A stretch of DNA of 64,000 nt. Origin: Candidatus Poribacteria bacterium WGA-3G. Lineage in GTDB: Bacteria > Poribacteria > WGA-4E > WGA-3G. The notes under the pieces were generated by a model, which was not told the origin of the DNA, did no database searches, and saw only the letters and a program-made list of their open reading frames with translations. Every line of letters begins with the position of its first letter. Position 1 is the stretch's first letter. The stretch lies in contig ASZN01000021.1 in the NCBI GenBank assembly GCA_000406005.1, positions 3,309 through 67,308 on the forward strand, written 5' to 3'. Below, piece by piece: positions 29,222 to 45,099 of this stretch. The position numbers and the translations under genes were made by a program.

Positions 29222-30511
29222 ATGGATACAGCAAGAATCCAAATCAAAGCAGGCAACGGTGGGAACGGATGCATCAGTTTCCGTCGCGAGAAATTCGTCC
29301 CTCGCGGCGGTCCTGACGGTGGCGATGGCGGCAACGGCGGCAACGTCGTCCTTATCGCTACCCTTGGAATGAGTACACTGATCGACCTGCATCATAACCC
29401 GCGCCAAGTCGCCGAAAATGGTGGACACGGCTCCGGCAAAAAACGAGACGGTGCTGATGGCGTAGATCGTGTCGTTAAAGTCCCTACCGGCACCATCGTT
29501 AGAGACTATGATACCACCGAGGTGCTTGCGGACCTAACGGAACCTGATGAAAGCGTTGTCGTCGCACGCGGCGGTATCGGCGGTAAGGGGAACGCACGCT
29601 TTAAAAGTAGCACCTTCCAAGCACCACGCGTCGCAGAGAAAGGCGAACCCGGCGAAGAACGTCAGATTAGCCTCGAAGTTAAACTCATCGCCGATGTCGG
29701 ACTCGTCGGCTATCCGAACGCCGGTAAATCGACACTCTTATCACGTACATCTGCCGCAACACCAAAAATCGCCGCCTACCCGTTCACGACGCTCCGTCCG
29801 AACCTCGGTGTCGTCCGCATCAACCGAGAACAGAACTTTATCCTCGCCGACATCCCCGGACTCATAGAAGGCGCGCATCAAGGTGCTGGCTTAGGACACC
29901 AATTCTTGCGGCACATCGAACGCACCAAGATGCTCATCCACGTCATCGACCTTAGTGCCACGGATGGACGAGACCCGATTAAAGATTACGAACAATTGAA
30001 CCGCGAATTGGGTCATTATAACGAATTGCTAACGAAACTGCCACAAATCATCGCACTCAATAAAACAGATATGCCCGAAGCGAAGGCGAACCTACAGCGC
30101 GTACAGGAATACTTCGGCAACCGGAAAACTTTTCCGATCTCTGCAATTACCGGTGACGGTGTGAACCCACTCATGCAGCAAGCCTATCGCTCCTTGCAAT
30201 ACTTGGAAGCACGTGCCCGAAAGGAAGCAGAGACAGCGATCATCTTGGAACATGAACTCCCACCGGAACCATCAGCACGGTTTGAACTCACTGAAACTGA
30301 AGATGGGTTCATTATCACCGGTGCAGAACCGCGCCGCGCCGTCCTCATGACCGACATGGAAAACGAACAAGCACTGGTCCTGTTATATCGGAAACTAAAA
30401 AATATGGGAGTTATAAACGCGCTTGCACGCGCAGGCGCGGAAGAAGGAGATACAGTCCAGATTGATGAATTCGAGTTCACCTATAGTCCAAAATCGATGC
30501 AATCCAGTTGA
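29222..30511 (+). CDS. obg: GTPase Obg/CgtA
   Basis: Glycine-rich Obg fold (GGNGG.G..SFRREK..P.GGPDGGDGGNGG) plus GTPase motifs GYPNAGKST and NKTD. Confidence 0.95.
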   Translation: MDTARIQIKAGNGGNGCISFRREKFVPRGGPDGGDGGNGGNVVLIATLGMSTLIDLHHNPRQVAENGGHGSGKKRDGADGVDRVVKVPTGTIVRDYDTTEVLADLTEPDESVVVARGGIGGKGNARFKSSTFQAPRVAEKGEPGEERQISLEVKLIADVGLVGYPNAGKSTLLSRTSAATPKIAAYPFTTLRPNLGVVRINREQNFILADIPGLIEGAHQGAGLGHQFLRHIERTKMLIHVIDLSATDGRDPIKDYEQLNRELGHYNELLTKLPQIIALNKTDMPEAKANLQRVQEYFGNRKTFPISAITGDGVNPLMQQAYRSLQYLEARARKEAETAIILEHELPPEPSARFELTETEDGFIITGAEPRRAVLMTDMENEQALVLLYRKLKNMGVINALARAGAEEGDTVQIDEFEFTYSPKSMQSS

Positions 30512-31628
30512 ACAGCGCGCCCGTTTAGGGGACGTACGGCGCATCGTCGTAAAGGTCGGCAGCAGCACCATCACAACGGACGGCGTGCTCAACGAAGCCG
30601 CTCTGGATGGACTTGTCCACGATTTAGCACTCGTCAAACAGGACGGTGTCGAGGTCATCCTTGTCACGTCAGGCGCCATCGCCGCCGGGTGGCCACAACT
30701 CGGTCTCAGGCAGCGTCCAAATACGCTACCACGCCTACAAGCCGCCGCCGCCACTGGGCAAATTCTATTAATGACAGCCTATCGAGAACGGTTCTCAAAT
30801 TATGGACAAAACGTCGCACTCATGCTCCTCACACGCGACGATTTCTCGAACCGCAAACGTTATACCCGTATGAACGACACCCTCCGAGCACTCCTGAATC
30901 TCGGCGTGATACCGATTATCAATGAAAACGACACCGTCGCCATTGAGGAAATCAAGGTCGGCGATAACGATACCCTCTCCGCTTACGTAACGAATCTCGC
31001 ACAAGCAGAACTCCTCGTTATCCTCTCCGATCAACCAGGTTTCTTCACCGCCGACCCAAGGTACACCCCGAATTCAGAACTCATCCACACCGTGAACACC
31101 ATCTCAGAGGAAATCTGGCAAGCCGCTGGTGAAGCAGGTACAACCAGTGGCACCGGCGGAATGGTGACCAAACTCAAAGCCGCTGACATCGTCACCGGAT
31201 CCGGAGAAATGATGGTCTTAGCAGACGGACAGGAACCGCTCGTCGTCACAAGACTCCTCAAGGGTGAGTTACTCGGAACCCTCTTCCTACCACATGAACG
31301 GATCTCCGGACGAAAACGCTGGATCGCCTATTCACGTCCACCGAAAGGCAGACTCATCTTAGACGACGGCGCACGCAATGCACTCATACAAGGCGGTAAA
31401 AGCCTACTGCCCGCCGGCATCCGACGCGTTGAAGGCAATTTCGACTACAGCGATACCGTCTCGTGTCTTACAGAAAACGGTGTGGAGTTTGCACGCGGCT
31501 TGGCAAACTATAATGCCGTAGAAACCGCCAAGCTCGCCGGGAAACAGACGACAGACATCGAAAAAATCCTCGGCTACCGCGACTACGACGAAATCATACA
31601 TCGCGATAATCTCGTCCTACTCGACTAA
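30465..31628 (+). CDS. proB: glutamate 5-kinase with C-terminal PUA domain
   Basis: RIVVKVGSS...VTSGAIAAG amino-acid-kinase motifs. Start uncertain: ATG 30465, or TTG 30423 overlapping obg. Confidence 0.85.
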   Translation: MNSSSPIVQNRCNPVEQRARLGDVRRIVVKVGSSTITTDGVLNEAALDGLVHDLALVKQDGVEVILVTSGAIAAGWPQLGLRQRPNTLPRLQAAAATGQILLMTAYRERFSNYGQNVALMLLTRDDFSNRKRYTRMNDTLRALLNLGVIPIINENDTVAIEEIKVGDNDTLSAYVTNLAQAELLVILSDQPGFFTADPRYTPNSELIHTVNTISEEIWQAAGEAGTTSGTGGMVTKLKAADIVTGSGEMMVLADGQEPLVVTRLLKGELLGTLFLPHERISGRKRWIAYSRPPKGRLILDDGARNALIQGGKSLLPAGIRRVEGNFDYSDTVSCLTENGVEFARGLANYNAVETAKLAGKQTTDIEKILGYRDYDEIIHRDNLVLLD

Positions 31629-31642
31629 TCTGTTGCCACGAC

Positions 31643-31828
31643 TCATTTGGAATCAGTGGTTTGTTGAGCTTTATCAACGAGAAGCGATTCTATCTTAGCA
31701 AGCCTCGCGTTTATTTCTTCAAGCGTTGGGTTCGAATCTTTTACTTTTTCTTCCAAAGTTTTTCTAATATCTCTCAGTTCATCAAGAATTATCTGTTCTA
31801 TGCTCGTTAGTGTTTTGATGTCTACCAT
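31643..31828 (-). CDS. small coiled-coil hypothetical protein
   Basis: 61-aa ORF convergent with proB. No recognisable domain. Confidence 0.3.
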   Translation of the reverse strand: MVDIKTLTSIEQIILDELRDIRKTLEEKVKDSNPTLEEINARLAKIESLLVDKAQQTTDSK

Positions 31829-32020
31829 CCGTACCTCCGTGGTGTTGACCAGCGGCGAATTGATAAATTCCGCTTAAATATTTATCTTGCATTCTATCAT
31901 ACTTGACCTAAAAATGTCAAAATATTCGCTCTTGAAATTTTCCAAACGACACGTTATAATACTCTTGCTATTCTTATACTTCAATTTTTGAGGAAAGGTG
32001 GAAAACAGGAAGGGAAACGC

Positions 32021-32785
32021 ATGGTTAGCCGAGAAACTATTCAAGCCGTTGTTGACGATATCGTGCGCGAGTTCACACCGCTACAAGTGATTCTCTTCGG
32101 CTCCTATGCCTACGGCACACCGACAGAGGACTCGGATGTGGACCTGCTCGTCGTCATGGATATTCCGAAATCAGAGTTTCGCAATAAAGCTATAGAGATC
32201 CGGCAACGTATCCCGTACCCGTTCGGCATGGATCTCTTAGTCCGCTCTCCGGAAGAGATCGCGTATCGTGTCGCCTACAACGATTGGTTTCTCCGCGAGA
32301 TTACTGAAAAAGGAGAACTCCTTCACGGATATGACACACATTGCAAAATAGAAAATACACAAAACACACCCAACATCTTCAAAAAGGAGAAGGTCCTGAT
32401 GAACCCGCTAACACTGGAGTGGGTGGAAAAGGCTGAAGAAGATTATAATTTAGCACAGTTGGCGCAGCAATCGTCCCGTCCATTTCACAATTCTATCTGT
32501 TTCCATGCGCAACAGTGCATCGAAAAATATCTAAAAGCGTGGCTTCAAGAGGCGAGCATTCCGGTACCAAGAACACACAATCTTGAGGAATTACTGATGT
32601 TGATTGTGCCGAGGCTGCCTGATTGGAATCAGTGGTATCCTGATTTTAAGACAATCACTATGTATGCAGTGGATTCTCGCTACCCAGGCGATCCAGCGAC
32701 TGCTGAGAATACAGAACATGCTATGCGTGTATGCGACGCGGTGCGTCAAGCCATCCGTTCCTCATTAAAACTTCCAATTATCTGA
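32021..32785 (+). CDS. nucleotidyltransferase (MNT/Pol-beta-like) fused to a HEPN domain in one polypeptide
   Basis: N-terminal GSYAYGTPTEDSDVDLLVV (GS...D.D nucleotidyltransferase motif). C-terminal HEPN with the RTHNLEEL R-x4-H motif. Confidence 0.75.
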   Translation: MVSRETIQAVVDDIVREFTPLQVILFGSYAYGTPTEDSDVDLLVVMDIPKSEFRNKAIEIRQRIPYPFGMDLLVRSPEEIAYRVAYNDWFLREITEKGELLHGYDTHCKIENTQNTPNIFKKEKVLMNPLTLEWVEKAEEDYNLAQLAQQSSRPFHNSICFHAQQCIEKYLKAWLQEASIPVPRTHNLEELLMLIVPRLPDWNQWYPDFKTITMYAVDSRYPGDPATAENTEHAMRVCDAVRQAIRSSLKLPII

Positions 32786-32847
32786 GTCGGTTATGTCAAA
32801 CTTGACAATTTCTATGAACCATTGATCACGTTCACCAAAGGAACACT

Positions 32848-34110
32848 ATGAACCAAAACATCCAAGAAATGATCCAATCACAAGCGAAAAAAGCAAAATC
32901 GGCGATGCGCGTTTTATCGCGGAGCTCCGCAGATGTCCGAAATAATGCGCTCTTAGCGATGGCTGAAAGCCTGCAGGACTCCAAAGATAAAATCCAAGCC
33001 GCCAATCGTATTGACCTCGATAACGGCGAAAAAACCGGACTCGCTGCACCCCTCATGCAACGTCTCCTCTTAGACAATAAAAAGATTGAACGTATGGTCG
33101 ACAACCTCCGACAAGTCGCCGCCCTCCCAGACCCCATCGGTGCCGTCATCAGTATGGGAGAACGTCCGAACGGACTCAAAATCGGCACTGTCCGTGTACC
33201 TATCGGTGTCGTCGCCGTGGTATACGAGTCACGTCCAGATGTGACCGTCGAAGTCTCGGCACTCTGCATCAAATCCGGGAACGGCGTTATCCTGCGTGGC
33301 GGTTCCGAGGCAATACACTCCAACGCAACACTCGCTCGGATACTCAGCGATACCGCCGCCGCAGAAGGTGTCCCAAACGCAATCCAATTCGTTGACACCA
33401 CCGACCGCCAAGCAGTCTACGAACTCATCCGTCTGCCAGACTATGTTGACCTCGTGATCCCTCGCGGTAGCAACGAATTCGTACAATTCCTGATGAAGGA
33501 ATCCGATGTTCCCGTACTCGGACACGCCGACGGTATCTGCCACATCTACGTCGATAAAGCCGCCGACCTCGAAATGGCAAACAATATCTGCATCAACGCG
33601 AAGATCGGATACAAAGTCGCCGTCTGCAACGCATTGGAAACACTTCTTGTCCACGCCGATACTGCCGAAAAATTCCTCCCCGCTTTTTGTGAGACGCTAC
33701 AAGATGCCGAGGTTGAAATCCGTGGATGCGAACAGACACAGCAACTCTATCCAGCTGCCAAACCCGCAACCGAAGAAGATTGGCGCACAGAATACCTCGA
33801 CTATATTCTCTCTATCCGCATAGTGGACGACATCGAAACAGCGATTGATCACATAGAAACTTACGGCTCACACCATTCCGACGCGATTATCACCGAGAGC
33901 TACAGCACAGCGCAACGCTTCCTCAAAGAGGTCGATTCCGCTGCAGTCTACGTCAACGCCAGCACCGTCTTCACCGACGGCTATGAATTCGGTCTCGGTG
34001 CCGAAGTCGGTATCAGCACACAGAAACTCCACTCCCGCGGTCCGATGGGACTCGAAGGTTTGACAACCTACAAATACATCGTCTACGGAAACGGTCAAGT
34101 CCGCGAATAG
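32848..34110 (+). CDS. proA: gamma-glutamyl phosphate reductase
   Basis: Aldehyde dehydrogenase fold with a GSEA-type glutamate-cysteine region. 420 aa, typical of ProA. Confidence 0.95.
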   Translation: MNQNIQEMIQSQAKKAKSAMRVLSRSSADVRNNALLAMAESLQDSKDKIQAANRIDLDNGEKTGLAAPLMQRLLLDNKKIERMVDNLRQVAALPDPIGAVISMGERPNGLKIGTVRVPIGVVAVVYESRPDVTVEVSALCIKSGNGVILRGGSEAIHSNATLARILSDTAAAEGVPNAIQFVDTTDRQAVYELIRLPDYVDLVIPRGSNEFVQFLMKESDVPVLGHADGICHIYVDKAADLEMANNICINAKIGYKVAVCNALETLLVHADTAEKFLPAFCETLQDAEVEIRGCEQTQQLYPAAKPATEEDWRTEYLDYILSIRIVDDIETAIDHIETYGSHHSDAIITESYSTAQRFLKEVDSAAVYVNASTVFTDGYEFGLGAEVGISTQKLHSRGPMGLEGLTTYKYIVYGNGQVRE

Positions 34111-34155
34111 GGCACACCACGCGCTCCTAACGCAGTCCATTACCGGAGGAAAATC

Positions 34156-34773
34156 ATGGCAGCCCGTGCAGCACAAACCCATCTCACACCTGAAGAATAT
34201 ATTGCTTTAGAACGCAAAGCAATACCTGATGCCGACACTGCCAGAAATGAATACGTCAAAGGGAAAATAATCGCAATGTCTGGAGCGAGTCGAGAGCATA
34301 ATCTCATCACTAATAACATATCTGGCGAGCTCCGCAATCTATTAAAAAGCAGCGGCTGTGAAACCTACGCGAGCGATATGCGGGTGAGTTCTCCTCTCAC
34401 TTCCTCCTACTTCTACCCTGATGTCGTTGTCGTTTGTGAAGAACCTCGTTTTGAAGACGATGTTTTTGATATACTCCTTAACCCCACTATCCTTGTAGAA
34501 GTCCTCTCTGCTTCAACCGAGGCTTATGATCGCGGCGAAAAATTCGGACACTACCGACACCTCGCGTCCTTGCAGGAATACATCCTCATTTCCCAAGACA
34601 AGGTACTCGTTGAACGCTACCGCCGCCAAAAAAAACAGGATACCGCACCCGTTCCTGCAAAAGACTGGATTTTCACCGCTTTCCAAGCACTTGAGGACAT
34701 TTTGCCACTCACCGCCATCCAATGCGAACTCCCCTTGCAAGAAATCTACGAACGCGTCACATTTCCTGATTAG
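34156..34773 (+). CDS. Uma2-family (DUF820) PD-(D/E)xK endonuclease-like protein
   Basis: EYIALER...G.II.MSGASREH... pattern, about 200 aa. Confidence 0.75.
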   Translation: MAARAAQTHLTPEEYIALERKAIPDADTARNEYVKGKIIAMSGASREHNLITNNISGELRNLLKSSGCETYASDMRVSSPLTSSYFYPDVVVVCEEPRFEDDVFDILLNPTILVEVLSASTEAYDRGEKFGHYRHLASLQEYILISQDKVLVERYRRQKKQDTAPVPAKDWIFTAFQALEDILPLTAIQCELPLQEIYERVTFPD

Positions 34774-40767: not shown

Positions 40768-43185
40768 GTGCGCCATTGTGCTAATGTGCCCAATTGAGAT
40801 ATAAATCTCTATACTAATTAGGAAATGGTATAAAGCCAACTGCTTTAGGGTAAAGAGAAATCTAAACCTGAACATAGCATAGCAGTAAAGGATAGAATGG
40901 ATGAACTAACCTAATCCAAAGCTATTCAAGGCTTGAGAGATATGGTAAGAGTTATACTACCCGAAATCCAATACGCAGGAGTAAGTGTGGCTAAAAGGGC
41001 AAGGTTAGTGATGCCCCCACTAAGAGATGACATTAGATTTTAAGTCTGTCTAATGCCTTCCTAAATCTCTTAGACACTGTGAAATATACACAGGCAAGCG
41101 TATGAGTGGATTACCTAAGTCTCTCTATCGTTGACACATTGGAACTATGGGATAGTCTAAAGGGTGAGAACCCCATGGCTACGGAGTTTCCATAGTAGTC
41201 GCTCTCAACTGAGAATAAGACTATGCGAAGGTATAGTGAAGATGAAGGGAAACAGGTAAGTTAATCCAAGTAGATATAAGAGTAATGCGAAATGCATATT
41301 ATCTCGAATAAATACCTTGGAATAGTGAGTGATAGAGGAAAAAGAAATCTTCCGCTAAAGCGCGTATACTCTAATATGTGCGATAGAGAATTATTTCTAA
41401 TTGCCTATCATCAAATGGCGAAAAAGAAAGGTGCCATGACAAAGGGGTCTAACTCCGAAAACATTGATGAAATGTCGATTACAAAAATAGATAAAATCAT
41501 CAATGAACTTAAAACCGGAAAATATAGACCCAAACCCAGTCGTAGGGTCTATGTATCTAAACCAGACGGAAAACAAAGATGTTTAGGAATACCATGCTGG
41601 ACAGACAAACTCGTCCAACGTGTAGTAACGATGATACTGGGAGAATACTATGAACCCCAGTTCTCAGATCACTCGCATGGATTTAGACCCAATAGAGGTT
41701 GTCATACTGCTTTGGAAGAAATAGCCATAGCGTGGAAAGGGACAAAGTGGTTTATAGAAGGAGACATAAAGGGCTGCTTCGACAACATAAACCATGAATA
41801 CCTACTGAAGATCCTAAGAAAAAGGATTTTAGATGAAAGACTCATTAAACTCATTCGTATATGGCTAAAAGCCGGGTATATCGAGAATTGGACATACCAC
41901 AACACATACTCAGGCACGCCACAAGGCGGCGTTATGAGTCCTCTACTGGCTAACATATACCTCTCTGAATTAGATGAAAAATTAGAAGAATTATCTGAAA
42001 TCTGGAAAGTAGGAAAATCAAGAGGAACAAACCCCGAATACGCTAAACTATCGCGAAAAATCAACAAAGCAAAGAAGGAAAATAACGCCCAAGAAGCAAA
42101 AGAAGCACGGAAAGAACTTAACATCGCTAAAAGCAAAGGGCTTACTTGGTCGAATCCGCAAGATGACAATTTCCGCAGACTAAAATTTGTCAGATACGCA
42201 GACGATTTTATTATCGGATTTATCGGTAGCAAAGCAGAAGCCAAAGACATCAAAAAGGAAGTCAAAACTTTCCTCAAAGATGAAATTGGACTCACGCTAT
42301 CGGACGATAAAACGAAAATAACGAACGCGACACACGAAAAAGCACGCTTTCTTAACTACGAAATCTTTACCGAGAAATCAACAACAAGACCAAGAATAAA
42401 TGGAACAATCCGCTTGGACTTGCCTCACGACGTGTTCATAAAATGGAAAAGGAAGTATACTAAGAAAGGGAAAGCCTATCACAGCCCCTACTACATGGAA
42501 CTATCCGATTATATGATAATCAGGGCATATAATGCAGAGTTTCAAGGTCTCTATCAGTATTACATAATGGCTCAAAACGTATCGAGCAAATTATATCAAT
42601 TGAAGAGCTATGTGATGACATCAGCAGCTAAAACCTTGGCATCCAAACACAAACTCTCTGTAAACAAAATATGCGAAAAATATAAGAGGACCGGCAGCAA
42701 CGGCGTAAAAGCACTCATAGTAGAGGTCAATAGAAAGGATAAACCGCCCTTAGTCGCCACATTAGGGGACTTCCAAATAAAATGGGTAAAGTTTCCGAGT
42801 AAGAAAGATAAGCCATACAACGATGAAATTAGAGGTATAAAAGTTCTTGATGATAAAAAAAGTGTCCGGTCTGACCTCCTAACAAGGCTTATGAATAACA
42901 CTTGTGAAATATGTGGAAATACGGATGAAATAGAAGTACACCACATCAGAAAAATGAGTGATATTGATAAGAACAAAGAAGGATGGCAAAAACTCATGAG
43001 TAGCATGAGACGAAAGACACTCATCGTCTGCAAGGACTGTCATCATAAAATCCATATAGGAAAATATGATGGAAAATCACTATAAAAACTTACTGGAGAG
43101 CTACGTGCATTGAAAAGTGCAAGCGTGGTTCGGAGGGGGACTATTGAAAACACAGATGATGCTGTGCGTTGGTAGTCTACCCTAC
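40768..43185 (+). mobile_element. group II intron (~2.4 kb) with an intron-encoded protein in domain IV
   Basis: 5' GTGCG. Domain V is GAGAGCTACGTGCATT-GAAA-AGTGCAAGCGTGGTTC (AGC triad, GAAA loop) at about 43098-43131. Domain VI follows and the 3' end is ...CCTAC. The ORF at 41292-43085 encodes RT, maturase (X) and HNH domains. Confidence 0.85.
41292..43085 (+). CDS. group II intron reverse transcriptase/maturase with C-terminal HNH endonuclease domain
   Basis: RT motifs include FVRYADDFIIGF (YADD). An X/maturase region is present. HNH/zinc-finger-like sequence: CEICGNTDEIEVHHI...CKDCHHKIH. Confidence 0.9.
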   Translation: MHIISNKYLGIVSDRGKRNLPLKRVYSNMCDRELFLIAYHQMAKKKGAMTKGSNSENIDEMSITKIDKIINELKTGKYRPKPSRRVYVSKPDGKQRCLGIPCWTDKLVQRVVTMILGEYYEPQFSDHSHGFRPNRGCHTALEEIAIAWKGTKWFIEGDIKGCFDNINHEYLLKILRKRILDERLIKLIRIWLKAGYIENWTYHNTYSGTPQGGVMSPLLANIYLSELDEKLEELSEIWKVGKSRGTNPEYAKLSRKINKAKKENNAQEAKEARKELNIAKSKGLTWSNPQDDNFRRLKFVRYADDFIIGFIGSKAEAKDIKKEVKTFLKDEIGLTLSDDKTKITNATHEKARFLNYEIFTEKSTTRPRINGTIRLDLPHDVFIKWKRKYTKKGKAYHSPYYMELSDYMIIRAYNAEFQGLYQYYIMAQNVSSKLYQLKSYVMTSAAKTLASKHKLSVNKICEKYKRTGSNGVKALIVEVNRKDKPPLVATLGDFQIKWVKFPSKKDKPYNDEIRGIKVLDDKKSVRSDLLTRLMNNTCEICGNTDEIEVHHIRKMSDIDKNKEGWQKLMSSMRRKTLIVCKDCHHKIHIGKYDGKSL

Positions 43186-43250
43186 AAAATCCGTCGCCCT
43201 AAACAGGTGTGAGGGTTCAAGTCCCTCCTCGACCATAATTCAATACAAGT

Positions 43251-43340
43251 AGAACTTACGCGCTTCCACGGTAGGTGCGGTTTCATAACCGCACCCGATT
43301 ACGTCATCATAGACCTAATTCTCTGATTTCGCGTAAGTCT
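43251..43340. repeat. short MITE/REP-like element (TIR AGAACTTACGCG...CGCGTAAGTCT) enclosing the palindrome GGTGCGGTTTCATAACCGCACC
   Basis: Shares the ACTTACGC terminal motif with the main MITE family. Confidence 0.55.
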
Positions 43341-43356
43341 TGACAATAATTCTTGA

Positions 43357-43430
43357 CGCAGGGTAGAGCAGCCAGGTAGCTCGTCGGGCTCATAACCCGG
43401 AGGACGGGGGTTCAAATCCCCCCCCCTGCA
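43357..43430 (+). tRNA. initiator tRNA-fMet (CAU)
   Basis: CGCAGGGTAGAGCAGCCAGGTAGCTCGTCGGGCTCATAACCCGGAGG...: C1:A72 mismatch, three G:C pairs in the anticodon stem, anticodon CAT. Closely matches E. coli tRNA-fMet as recalled. Confidence 0.85.
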
Positions 43431-43525
43431 ATCTTCTCAACCCCTAAATGTTCTTTGATACATCAACGATAACATACAAAAAACACACTTAACCTCATCG
43501 TTTCCGATAATCCATCTCAACCTAT

Positions 43526-43599
43526 GCCGGTGTAGCTCAGTGGTTTAGAGCACACGACTCATAATCGTGCTGTCCGGAGTTCGACTCTCCGCACCGGCA
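43526..43599 (+). tRNA. tRNA with CAU anticodon (elongator Met or tRNA-Ile2, the lysidine substrate)
   Basis: GCCGGTG-TA-GCTC-AGTGGTTTA-GAGC-A-CACGA-CTCATAA-TCGTG-CTGTC-CGGAG-TTCGACT-CTCCG-CACCGGC-A. Confidence 0.85.
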
Positions 43600-43653
43600 T
43601 CGTTCTACCGTTTAAGCGGTGGGATACAATTTGCCGTTAAAATTGGCGACCTC

Positions 43654-45099
43654 ATGACAGCCGACTTCGTTCAACAGATGCACCGCTCCATAGCAGAGCA
43701 TAAAATGATTGAGGACGCTGAAACTGTGCTCGTCGCAGTCTCAGGCGGCGCAGATTCGCTTGCACTCCTATACGCACTGCACGCTTTACGCCAACAACTC
43801 AGATGTCATCTGCACGTTGTACATCTAAACCACTGCCTCCGACCAGACGCTGACACAGACGCTGACTTCGTCCGACAACACGCAGAACACCTAAATCTGC
43901 CTTGCACCCTCCAACAGGTAGATGTGTTCCGTTTAGCAAAACAGTGGAAACTCTCTGTAGAAACCGCCGGACGCAGAGCACGCTATCAATTCTATGATTC
44001 CGTCTGTTCGGAAACCGACGCGACGAAAGTCGCCTTAGGACACCACCAAGACGACATCGCCGAAACGGTTCTGATGAACCTCATACGCGGGAGCGGAACC
44101 GACGGATTGAAAGGCATCGTTCCCGTCAGGGATATGAAATTTATTAGACCTCTGATAGAATTTACACGTCAACAGATTGAGGCGTTCCTAACGTCCATAG
44201 GTATTGTCCCGCGACACGATTCAACCAACACCGATACACGCTATCTTCGCAATCGTATCCGCCACGAGTTGATACCAAGGCTTGAGAACAATTATAATCC
44301 AAATATCAAAGCCGCATTAAGCCGGACTGCTGATGTATTAGGTACTGAATCGGAATACCTTGATACAATCGCTTGCACAGCGTTTGAGGCGTGCCAAATA
44401 CAAGTCTCGCAAGAGACTATTATCCTTGATAGGGAAAAATTTCGACAGCACCACATCGCACTGCAGAGACGGATCCTCCGGAAAAGCGTATCCGAGATGT
44501 TAGGCGATTCGAGCGATCTCTATTTCAAACACTGCATCGCGATGCAAAATCTCATTGAAGGCGACGCACCTAATGCTGTCCTGCCACTTCCGAACGGTTT
44601 ACAATTTCGGCGTGCATATCAACGGATCGCCTTTGAAAGAAAAACAACTGAAATAGGAAACTTCTCCTATCCGATCGCCACTGTTGGAAAAACACTTATA
44701 GCGGCTTTAAATGCCGAAATTATTGCAGAATTGGGGGATGGAACATCTCGTAGAACACCCACACCACCCAATGGCAAATTTGAAGCGATATTTGATTATC
44801 AAAAGTTAAGAAAGGTATTTGCAGAACCGTTTTCAGAAGCAATCCCGCTCACATTGCGTAATCGGCGACAAGGCGACCGGTTTCAGCCGTACGGTATGCA
44901 AGGGACGAAAAAAATTAAGGATTTTTTGATAGATGCCAAGGTGCCTCGCCACGAACGCGACAACATTCCGCTCCTTGTTTGCGGCGATGTGATCTTGTGG
45001 GTCATCGGTTATACAACCAGCGATCTTTTCAAGGTCCAACCGCACACACAACACTATCTCTACCTAAGTTATGCCAGCAGCGACGAAACCGCTCCCTGA
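43654..45099 (+). CDS. tilS: tRNA(Ile)-lysidine synthetase
   Basis: PP-loop VAVSGGADSLALLY plus a TilS C-terminal domain. The listed ORF begins inside the tRNA; ATG 43654 is preferred. Confidence 0.85.
   Translation: MTADFVQQMHRSIAEHKMIEDAETVLVAVSGGADSLALLYALHALRQQLRCHLHVVHLNHCLRPDADTDADFVRQHAEHLNLPCTLQQVDVFRLAKQWKLSVETAGRRARYQFYDSVCSETDATKVALGHHQDDIAETVLMNLIRGSGTDGLKGIVPVRDMKFIRPLIEFTRQQIEAFLTSIGIVPRHDSTNTDTRYLRNRIRHELIPRLENNYNPNIKAALSRTADVLGTESEYLDTIACTAFEACQIQVSQETIILDREKFRQHHIALQRRILRKSVSEMLGDSSDLYFKHCIAMQNLIEGDAPNAVLPLPNGLQFRRAYQRIAFERKTTEIGNFSYPIATVGKTLIAALNAEIIAELGDGTSRRTPTPPNGKFEAIFDYQKLRKVFAEPFSEAIPLTLRNRRQGDRFQPYGMQGTKKIKDFLIDAKVPRHERDNIPLLVCGDVILWVIGYTTSDLFKVQPHTQHYLYLSYASSDETAP

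Follow-up and report, generated by a model that had tools for sequence, protein, structure and literature searches.

We show here that the gene interposed between proB and proA in Candidatus Poribacteria bacterium WGA-3G encodes a Class II MNT/HEPN module in a single polypeptide chain. The gene lies at positions 32021-32785 on the plus strand of a 64,000-nucleotide stretch of contig ASZN01000021.1 (the window, to which all coordinates refer), and its 254-residue product joins an MNT-type nucleotidyltransferase (PF01909) to a HEPN domain of the PF05168 type. Both the identity of this fusion protein and the history of its gene are well supported, and the architecture is a known one, found here in a new, large and lineage-specific family. 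As to function, the reading that we prefer, identity included, is a Class II module in which nucleotidylylation of Tyr221 by the MNT domain would control the HEPN domain; by analogy with related modules we put its probability at about 0.5. Class II (PF05168) modules, which abound in archaea and in some bacteria, are biochemically uncharacterised, and this conserved family offers a good object on which to test them. The analysis also corrects an over-reading of the locus in an initial annotation, since there is no defence island, no rare architecture and no such RNase motif as had been supposed.

Pfam hidden Markov models match both halves of the protein, in agreement with the earlier description of a nucleotidyltransferase and a HEPN domain joined in one frame. 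NTP_transf_2 (PF01909) covers residues 13-79 (E-value 8e-12, above the curated cut-off) and PF05168 covers residues 133-246 (E-value 2e-20; 73.4 bits against a cut-off of 22), while neither PF01934 nor PF08780 matches at E <= 0.01. All 82 family members have the nucleotidyltransferase motif G27-S28-x10-D39-x-D41 (32099-32143), which is invariant in the family alignment (A1). Between the two domains lies a variable linker, some 25 residues long (residues 103-126; 32327-32398), most of which is predicted to be disordered: residues 106-125 have a predicted local distance difference test score (pLDDT) below 50 in the full-length AlphaFold model, whose overall pLDDT is 81.7. The linker is also the only poorly conserved stretch of the alignment and carries 3-residue indels; further variability is seen at residues 143-156 and 196-207. 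The HEPN domain proper, residues 127-254 (32399-32782), was modelled separately with a pLDDT of 92.9. Absence of a HEPN fold from the C-terminal half had been raised as a possibility, and the fold is there: the best structural matches in the PDB are ST0689 (1wol), TT1696 (1ufb), TM0613 (1o3u) and the HEPN domain of sacsin (3o10), with template modelling (TM) scores of 0.72-0.77, or 0.71-0.77 when AF_0298 (2hsb), also among the matches, is included. HepT toxins match this model less well (TM about 0.6), and 1wol is the only significant PDB match of the domain at the sequence level (E-value 8.6e-6). Unlike the fusion, ST0689, TT1696 and TM0613 are single-domain proteins and the sacsin HEPN is a part of sacsin; to our knowledge, the biochemical function of all four is likewise unsettled. 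When the full-length model is searched, its halves match MntA antitoxins and HEPN proteins separately, and the whole resembles enzymes composed of a nucleotidyltransferase and a helical domain, a point to which we return below. An exact-sequence look-up of the 254-residue protein returned no existing record.

The HEPN half does not carry the catalytic motif that had been ascribed to it. The segment RTHNLEEL, which had been read as R-x4-H, spans residues 184-191, and the R184-T-H186 within it has the pattern R-x-H; across the C-terminal halves of the 82 family members, no homologous position holds a conserved R-x(4-6)-H. Because the supposed RNase motif was misread, RNase activity of the HEPN domain cannot be assumed. 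At the position that the Rx4-6H motif takes in other HEPN families, the loop that connects helices 3 and 4, this family has R220-Y221-P222-G223 (32678-32689), which is invariant in the family alignment and whose Y221 is the candidate site for nucleotidylylation. Of the 82 members, 75 have RYPG, with D as the next residue in 67 of these 75; the loop is modelled with low confidence in both the full-length and the HEPN-only models. H186 and H233 are invariant as well and lie outside this loop, so that the invariant residues of the family comprise GSx10DxD, E168/K172, H186, R220-Y221 and H233.

These features place the protein among described systems. HEPN/MNT pairs have been divided into two classes (PMC7641770; Yao 2020). 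Class I, which includes the type VII system HepT/MntA and has a DUF86 or PF08780 HEPN domain with an RX4HXY motif, has been shown to be toxic, and polyadenylylation neutralises it; Class II (PF05168/PF01909) keeps GSX10DXD, is without RX4H and has a conserved Tyr that is possibly adenylylated (PMC7641770). With the two-gene modules of Class II (Makarova 2009; Anantharaman 2013; Yao 2020) the window protein shares the same domains in the same order (MNT 5', HEPN 3'), the retained GSx10DxD, the absence of RX4H and the conserved Tyr in the HEPN part, and stand-alone HEPN proteins of about 128 residues align from their first residue to M127 of the fusion. It differs from them in being read as one frame with a linker of some 25 residues, and in belonging to a chromosomal, multi-copy family that was found almost exclusively in Poribacteria. 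Because a single open reading frame (ORF) preserves the order of the domains and still has a start codon with a Shine-Dalgarno (SD) sequence at the old boundary, we regard the window protein as the fused form of a Class II module. Fusions of a PF05168 HEPN to an MNT domain are listed in Table 1 of PMC3710099 (Anantharaman 2013). The same work describes PF05168 as 'HEPN-T', in which D replaces the conserved H in several cases and a conserved H occurs elsewhere, and both the RYPG-D loop and the invariant H elsewhere in the present family agree with that description.

The closest studied precedent for a fused form is of the other class. FhepTA (SO_1440) of Shewanella oneidensis is a fused Class I MntA-HepT that auto-oligoAMPylates a Tyr beside the HEPN active site (PMC13000451; Yao 2026). 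Highly similar split and fused forms coexist in that system as they do here. However, its HEPN is of the DUF86/HepT type with R-phi-xxxH and Tyr, whereas that of the window is PF05168 with RYPG and without Rx4-6H; its linker consists of 3-5 hydrophobic residues rather than about 25 variable ones; and it is found on prophages and mobile islands, in contrast to a family that sits at fixed chromosomal sites and is absent from the viral contigs searched. FhepTA also has neither an internal ribosome-binding site nor an ATG for its HEPN part, both of which are mostly kept in the window family. Given this precedent, the Table 1 entries, the names already in use in databases and 1765 homologue matches, the suggestion that fused MNT-HEPN genes are unusual was too strong.

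The boundary between the two domains carries a candidate internal start. An AAGGAG (32384-32389) is followed after a 9-nucleotide spacer by the ATG of M127 (32399-32401), the whole site extending over 32384-32401. Position 127 is a nearly invariant Met that closes the variable linker, and the stand-alone HEPN relatives of about 128 residues begin exactly at profile position 127. Among 74 members in which the site was scored, the codon is ATG in 72 and GTG in 2; the 8 members that the script left unscored have, by eye, Met in 7 and Thr in 1. An SD-like motif occurs at -17 to -5 in 59 of the 74 (background 8.5%), and AAGGAG itself in 29 of the 74 (background 0.7%). Lys-Glu dipeptides are encoded as AAG GAG in 30 of 59 cases at the site and in 0 of 20 elsewhere, against overall usages of 37% for AAG and 42% for GAG; as the sequences are related, none of these counts are independent. 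The SD sequence and ATG at M127 are thus a candidate for the retained start of an ancestral, separate hepn cistron. That translation actually initiates there is possible, though we would rather doubt it. Slightly more tentative still, and in our estimate unlikely, is the fuller scheme of a nested two-product module, in which one frame would yield both the full-length protein and a free 128-residue HEPN, the longer product would either modify the shorter one or sequester it, and the family, which each genome would keep in several vertically inherited copies, would act as a resident RNA- or nucleotide-directed regulatory switch of Poribacteria and not as a selfish toxin-antitoxin system. If true, it would give a first functional handle on the uncharacterised Class II (PF05168) modules that are without the canonical RNase motif, and the conserved start signal offers a concrete idea of how a fused toxin-antitoxin could release a free effector.

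The family to which the protein belongs is large. A homologue search returned 1765 matches at E <= 1e-5, the best 120 of which are 247-263 residues long and 72-92% identical to the fusion protein. The survey for other fused MNT-HEPN genes that the initial annotation had proposed yielded 317 encoding stretches in GTDB species-representative genomes, and 80 loci were kept for comparison (numbered with L below). Of these, 78 come from records titled Poribacteria and the other 2 from records titled 'uncultured bacterium', with up to three of the kept loci on one chromosome (e.g. OX639973, OZ253447). The fusion ORF is single and uninterrupted in the window and in all fetched loci. No relatives were found in IMG/VR viral contigs or in GenBank phages (INPHARED), and those on plasmids are exclusively split two-gene nucleotidyltransferase/HEPN pairs of the Bacillus cereus group with 33-37% identity. 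A library-wide profile search reached further, to 15592 representatives at E <= 1e-3. It included distant fused relatives of 250-290 residues, some from Anaerolineae, already named 'HEPN domain-containing protein/predicted nucleotidyltransferase', and many stand-alone HEPN proteins of about 128 residues, which share the motifs FHxQQxxEKYLKA, [RK]THDL and RYPG with the fusion protein. One cluster at 90% identity (P0332) holds fused proteins of 252-254 residues together with a split pair (a 102-residue nucleotidyltransferase and a 131-residue HEPN on a single 4572-nucleotide contig); it follows that the fused and split forms of Class II modules interconvert, just as those of Class I have been reported to do in Shewanella. 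A literature search on Poribacteria together with HEPN found nothing relevant.

Seventy of the loci are paralogous, 67-79% identical to the window fusion protein, and lie elsewhere on the chromosome in recurrent contexts. The commonest site is directly upstream of genes for a small membrane protein, an uncharacterised 240-residue protein, YidD and a TPR protein. Paralogues are preceded by an ABC ATPase and a B12-radical-SAM gene, by a secreted protein of about 335 residues or by a Type ISP-like methylase/restriction gene, and further ones adjoin a DUF6785 protein or oxidoreductases. Type ISP-like restriction-modification genes are adjacent to about 10 paralogous loci, and the gene of about 1030 residues (Type_ISP_C, N6_Mtase and Eco57I) recurs in L020, L032, L033, L050, L055, L077, L078 and L081. 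This echoes the reported clustering of PF05168 HEPN domains with restriction-modification operons (PMC3710099). DNA similarity between the window and the 70 paralogous loci stops at the ends of the ORF in blastn comparisons, which rules out shared mobile flanks. In a neighbour-joining tree the copies group by locus type and not by genome, and those at proBA form one derived clade; it follows that the duplications are old and that the copies are inherited vertically, and concerted evolution between paralogues within a genome was rejected on the same grounds. The family is thus a multi-copy one at fixed chromosomal sites, so far almost only in Poribacteria. One locus (L011, 5177-6771) has two fusion genes in tandem, of 257 and 261 residues, with nearly identical MNT halves and diverged HEPN halves.

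How the gene came to lie between proB and proA can be followed across relatives. The order proB-fusion-proA is found in 11 related loci besides the window (L001-L010 and L026), with fusion proteins 92-96% and ProA 93-95% identical to those of the window. ProA homologues in other Poribacteria led to further loci (L082-L085) that form a series. That proB and proA are normally contiguous, as had been supposed, holds in this lineage: in L084 (ProA 86% identical) they are 15 nucleotides apart with no insert. The gap is 482 nucleotides in L085 (ProA 82%) and 238 nucleotides in L083 (ProA 91%, with MurJ next), neither with a gene called. L082 (ProA 92%) has proB, the small minus-strand gene that is also present in the window (31643-31828), proA and a Uma2 gene, all without the fusion, and L086-L089 are arranged in the same way. 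Conversely, the fusion occurs without the small gene in L001 and L002 and without Uma2 in L001 and L026. Among the 11 related loci, Uma2 is full-length in 5, reduced to remnants of 21-38 residues in 4 and absent from 2. Because the three genes are distributed independently across the loci, they are three separate insertions into a housekeeping neighbourhood and not one cluster. These comparisons show a junction that was filled stepwise, from contiguous genes to the small gene with its promoters and then to the fusion cassette, with Uma2 gained, and now decaying, downstream; it makes a neat case, from uncultivated bacteria, of small insertions splitting an operon. The gene is not a conserved housekeeping component, as the initial annotation had considered it might prove to be, since sister genomes are without it at proBA and the paralogues occupy unrelated loci.

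The insertion can be delimited against L082. In blastn, homology ends at 31961 of the window and resumes at 32836, with 68 nucleotides between these points in L082, which defines a cassette of about 874 nucleotides (31962-32835, plus strand) made up of a 59-nucleotide leader, the fusion ORF and a 50-nucleotide tail. Its left border lies one base past the -10 hexamer of a sigma-70-like promoter (TTGAAA-17-TATAAT, 31932-31960, plus strand, 11 of 12 consensus matches) that faces the fusion and proA. The same element precedes proA in the fusion-less L082 (alignment A2), and hence predates the insertion. The comparison thus indicates that the cassette entered the proA leader in a sub-lineage already carrying the small gene, the divergent promoters and Uma2 after proA. 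No terminator-like site was found on the plus strand between the fusion stop and proA, and in L001 and L006 the fusion stop abuts or overlaps the proA start; the fusion is probably the first gene of a predicted fusion-proA(-Uma2) transcript. At the cassette borders, neither a transposase or integrase nor flanking repeats or a target-site duplication were found. A repeat search gave only short two-copy matches. The best of them, termed D4 (TTGGAATCAGTGG at 31647 and 32623), has its copies in the small-gene region and in the HEPN coding region, away from the borders at 31962 and 32835, and was treated as chance.

At the proBA site the gene is clearly under purifying selection. Calculated with a Nei-Gojobori script, the ratio of nonsynonymous to synonymous divergence (dN/dS) among the proBA orthologues is 0.12 for the fusion, compared with 0.08 for proB, 0.05 for proA, 0.19 for Uma2 and 0.35 for the small gene. 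The synonymous divergence (dS) of the fusion is 0.23, about one third of that of the flanking proA (0.64) and proB (0.81) in the same genomes; it is 0.26 for the small gene and 0.41 for Uma2. This low value suggests a later arrival or recombinational exchange within the proBA clade; its cause may be that recombination spread the gene later, or else that the nucleotide sequence itself is constrained. In four other orthologous groups, the nonsynonymous and synonymous differences (pN and pS) of the fusion are near those of adjacent genes.

The mechanism that we consider most probable is modelled on homology to HepT/MntA and FhepTA. Drawing on ATP, the MNT domain would nucleotidylylate Tyr221, the invariant tyrosine of the RYPG loop, either in cis or inside a dimer, and the modification would switch the HEPN activity, whether RNA or nucleotide binding or cleavage, in response to ATP supply or protein turnover. 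The chemistry of the HEPN effector is uncertain because the canonical Rx4-6H site is absent. The internal SD sequence and ATG retained at M127 suggest that a free 128-residue HEPN might also be made, which the full-length protein would hold in check. The earlier proposal of a self-regulating toxin-antitoxin unit is reasonable by homology. Several observations weigh against our reading. The Rx4-6H motif is not conserved among the 82 family members, and the toxicity shown in PMC7641770 is that of Class I. HEPN domains fused to MNT are typically without RNase residues, probably inactive and exapted as substrate-binding domains (PMC3710099). The score against the NCBIfam model for MntA (NF047752) is 29.7 bits, below its cut-off of 60. 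The gene is a stable chromosomal resident without phage or viral copies and without defence neighbours, and would therefore make an atypical addiction module. As to the internal start, the SD-like motif is absent from about 20% of members, including whole paralogue groups, and could be a by-product of the Lys/Glu-rich linker.

Some of these observations also speak for a domesticated nucleotidyltransferase of the KNTase/ANT or GlnE kind, which we consider less probable than the preferred reading yet the most serious of its rivals. Such an enzyme would use its HEPN half to bind the substrate, and what it adenylylates would be a small molecule (such as one met in the host environment) or another protein; it would have no toxin activity, and its paralogues would differ in substrate. 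The exaptation argued in PMC3710099 and the absence of Rx4-6H favour this explanation, and so do the stable vertical inheritance, the housekeeping-like constraint, the many fixed paralogues and a variability concentrated in the linker and in residues 143-156 and 196-207. The two-domain fold, too, is one that the window protein has in common with ANT(4')/KNTase, AadA, ANT(9), LinB, GlnE, DrrA and HalB. The top Foldseek matches of the full-length model are HalB, AadA, ANT(9), GlnE, DrrA and LinB, HalB giving the best E-values, and the model superposes best on ANT(4')/KNTase, the highest global TM scores being 0.50-0.52. However, sequence identity to ANT(4')/KNTase-type enzymes and HalB is 10-18% without Pfam or NCBIfam membership: no Pfam KNTase_C or ANT match is found in the fusion protein, and the NCBIfam models for ANT(9) (16.4 bits, cut-off 340) and HalB (NF051895; 21.6 bits, cut-off 190) stay below threshold. 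Nor does the fusion gene have a HalA-like partner beside it, as in Hailong, its neighbours being proB and proA. The HEPN half is nearer to stand-alone, MNT-associated HEPN proteins (1wol, E-value 8.6e-6; TM 0.74-0.77) than to the C-terminal domains of aminoglycoside nucleotidyltransferases, close split two-gene relatives exist, and an invariant Tyr of RYPG on a surface loop together with a retained internal start fits a scheme of protein modification and two products better than a small-molecule enzyme.

Two further explanations take their lead from the location of the gene. According to one, which echoes the defence-island remnant of the initial annotation, the fusion came in recently along with the small gene and Uma2, in the form of a mobile toxin-antitoxin unit or as what is left of a defence island. 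The interposed segment does have a G+C content of 0.37-0.47 against 0.52-0.56 for proB and proA, the nucleotidyltransferase half and the Uma2 protein match the PADLOC candidate families PDC-S09 and PDC-S03, about ten paralogues adjoin the Type ISP-like gene, and the low synonymous divergence of the fusion would suit later arrival or exchange. Yet the independent distributions of the three genes refute a joint arrival: the small gene and Uma2 occupy these positions in fusion-less genomes as well, the fusion occurs without either, and neither accompanies any of the 70 paralogues, so that the two genes are not partners of the fusion. The clean cassette borders, the absence of relatives from the viral contigs and phages searched, the housekeeping neighbours and fixation at the site in 11 related genomes under purifying selection (dN/dS 0.12) likewise speak against a mobile or defence-island origin, which we hold to be improbable. 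An accessory role in proline biosynthesis, in which the protein would have been recruited into the operon to regulate ProB or ProA, for example by adenylylation, is more improbable still. It could draw on the shared orientation of the three genes, on the predicted promoter common to the fusion and proA with no terminator between them, and on the contact of the fusion stop with the proA start in L001 and L006. However, close relatives with ProA 91-92% identical have no fusion at proBA, sister genomes that make an essential role untenable; moreover, the 70 paralogues lie beside unrelated genes (the YidD/TPR operon, the ABC ATPase, the DUF6785 protein and others), and in the family tree the copies at proBA branch off as a derived clade.

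The gene order reported previously for the locus, namely proB, the antisense ORF, the 254-residue protein, proA and Uma2, is borne out with its coordinates by the ORF list and Pfam. Upstream of proB lies obg (29222-30511 in the ORF list). proB, encoding glutamate 5-kinase (30465-31628, plus strand; AA_kinase E-value 5.8e-39 and PUA 1.4e-19), has a frame of 30423-31628 with its ATG at 30465, and the frame of the fusion runs from 31988 to 32785 with its ATG at 32021. proA (32848-34110, plus strand) encodes glutamate-5-semialdehyde dehydrogenase according to Pfam Aldedh and the names in the source database. The Uma2/DUF820 gene (34156-34773, plus strand) follows it directly, its product matching PF05685 with an E-value of 4.4e-32 and 111.4 bits (cut-off 27), and MurJ comes next. 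All in all, the fusion gene is surrounded by housekeeping genes (obg, proB, proA, MurJ, GDPD and a sigma-54 regulator), and PADLOC matched the two candidate families given above and no named system. ProB of the window is 85-96% identical to that of the 10 related loci that contain proB. These fall into two allele classes, 85-86% in L002, L005, L008 and L009 and 93-96% in the others, while ProA is at 93-95% throughout; this suggests that a recombination event had its breakpoint at the proB/proA junction or close to it.

The small gene on the minus strand (31643-31828), convergent with proB, encodes a Poribacteria-specific protein of 61 residues and does not belong to the fusion cassette. It has 81 homologous protein clusters, nearly all of 61 residues and all from Poribacteria where the source is named. 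In every looked-up context with enough flank (L082, L086-L089) its neighbours are proB and proA, and the fusion is absent. A GGAGG stands 4 nucleotides upstream of its ATG, and a sigma-70-like promoter of its own (TTGACA-18-TAGAAT with a TG extension, 31891-31920, minus strand, 11 of 12 positions) is predicted from consensus matching. No Pfam, NCBIfam or PADLOC match was found for the product, which is rich in Lys and Glu and looks by eye like a coiled coil. What had seemed a degenerate second copy of the fusion upstream in L005-L010 turned out to be the small gene read in its antisense frame, a clustering artefact that arose through one artificially long ORF in L006. On one ENA contig of 4.82 Mb (ctg717589l), shared by L082 and L086, the order obg-proB-small gene-proA-Uma2 is present in two oppositely oriented copies separated by about 690 kb; the segment is either truly duplicated, or the metagenome assembly is chimeric.

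Palindromes with TTGAC/GTCAA half-sites are found at 31903-31920 and 32795-32806. The first, TTGAC-N8-GTCAA, overlaps the -35 box of the small-gene promoter; the second, GTCAA-AC-TTGAC, precedes proA within the 3' tail of the cassette and is present in L002 and L004 and deleted in L001, L006 and L007. The two may be operator sites.

An Rfam scan of the whole window gave no match in the 31.6-34.8 kb region. Elsewhere in the window, the region 41292-43601 contains a group II intron, with an ORF for reverse transcriptase, maturase and HNH domains (41292-43085) and an Rfam match to Intron_gpII (43096-43185). Directly after it come two tRNA genes with a CAT anticodon (43358-43430 and 43525-43601) and then tilS (43567-45099), the listed GTG start of which overlaps the second of them; one of the two tRNAs may be tRNA-Ile2, the substrate of TilS.

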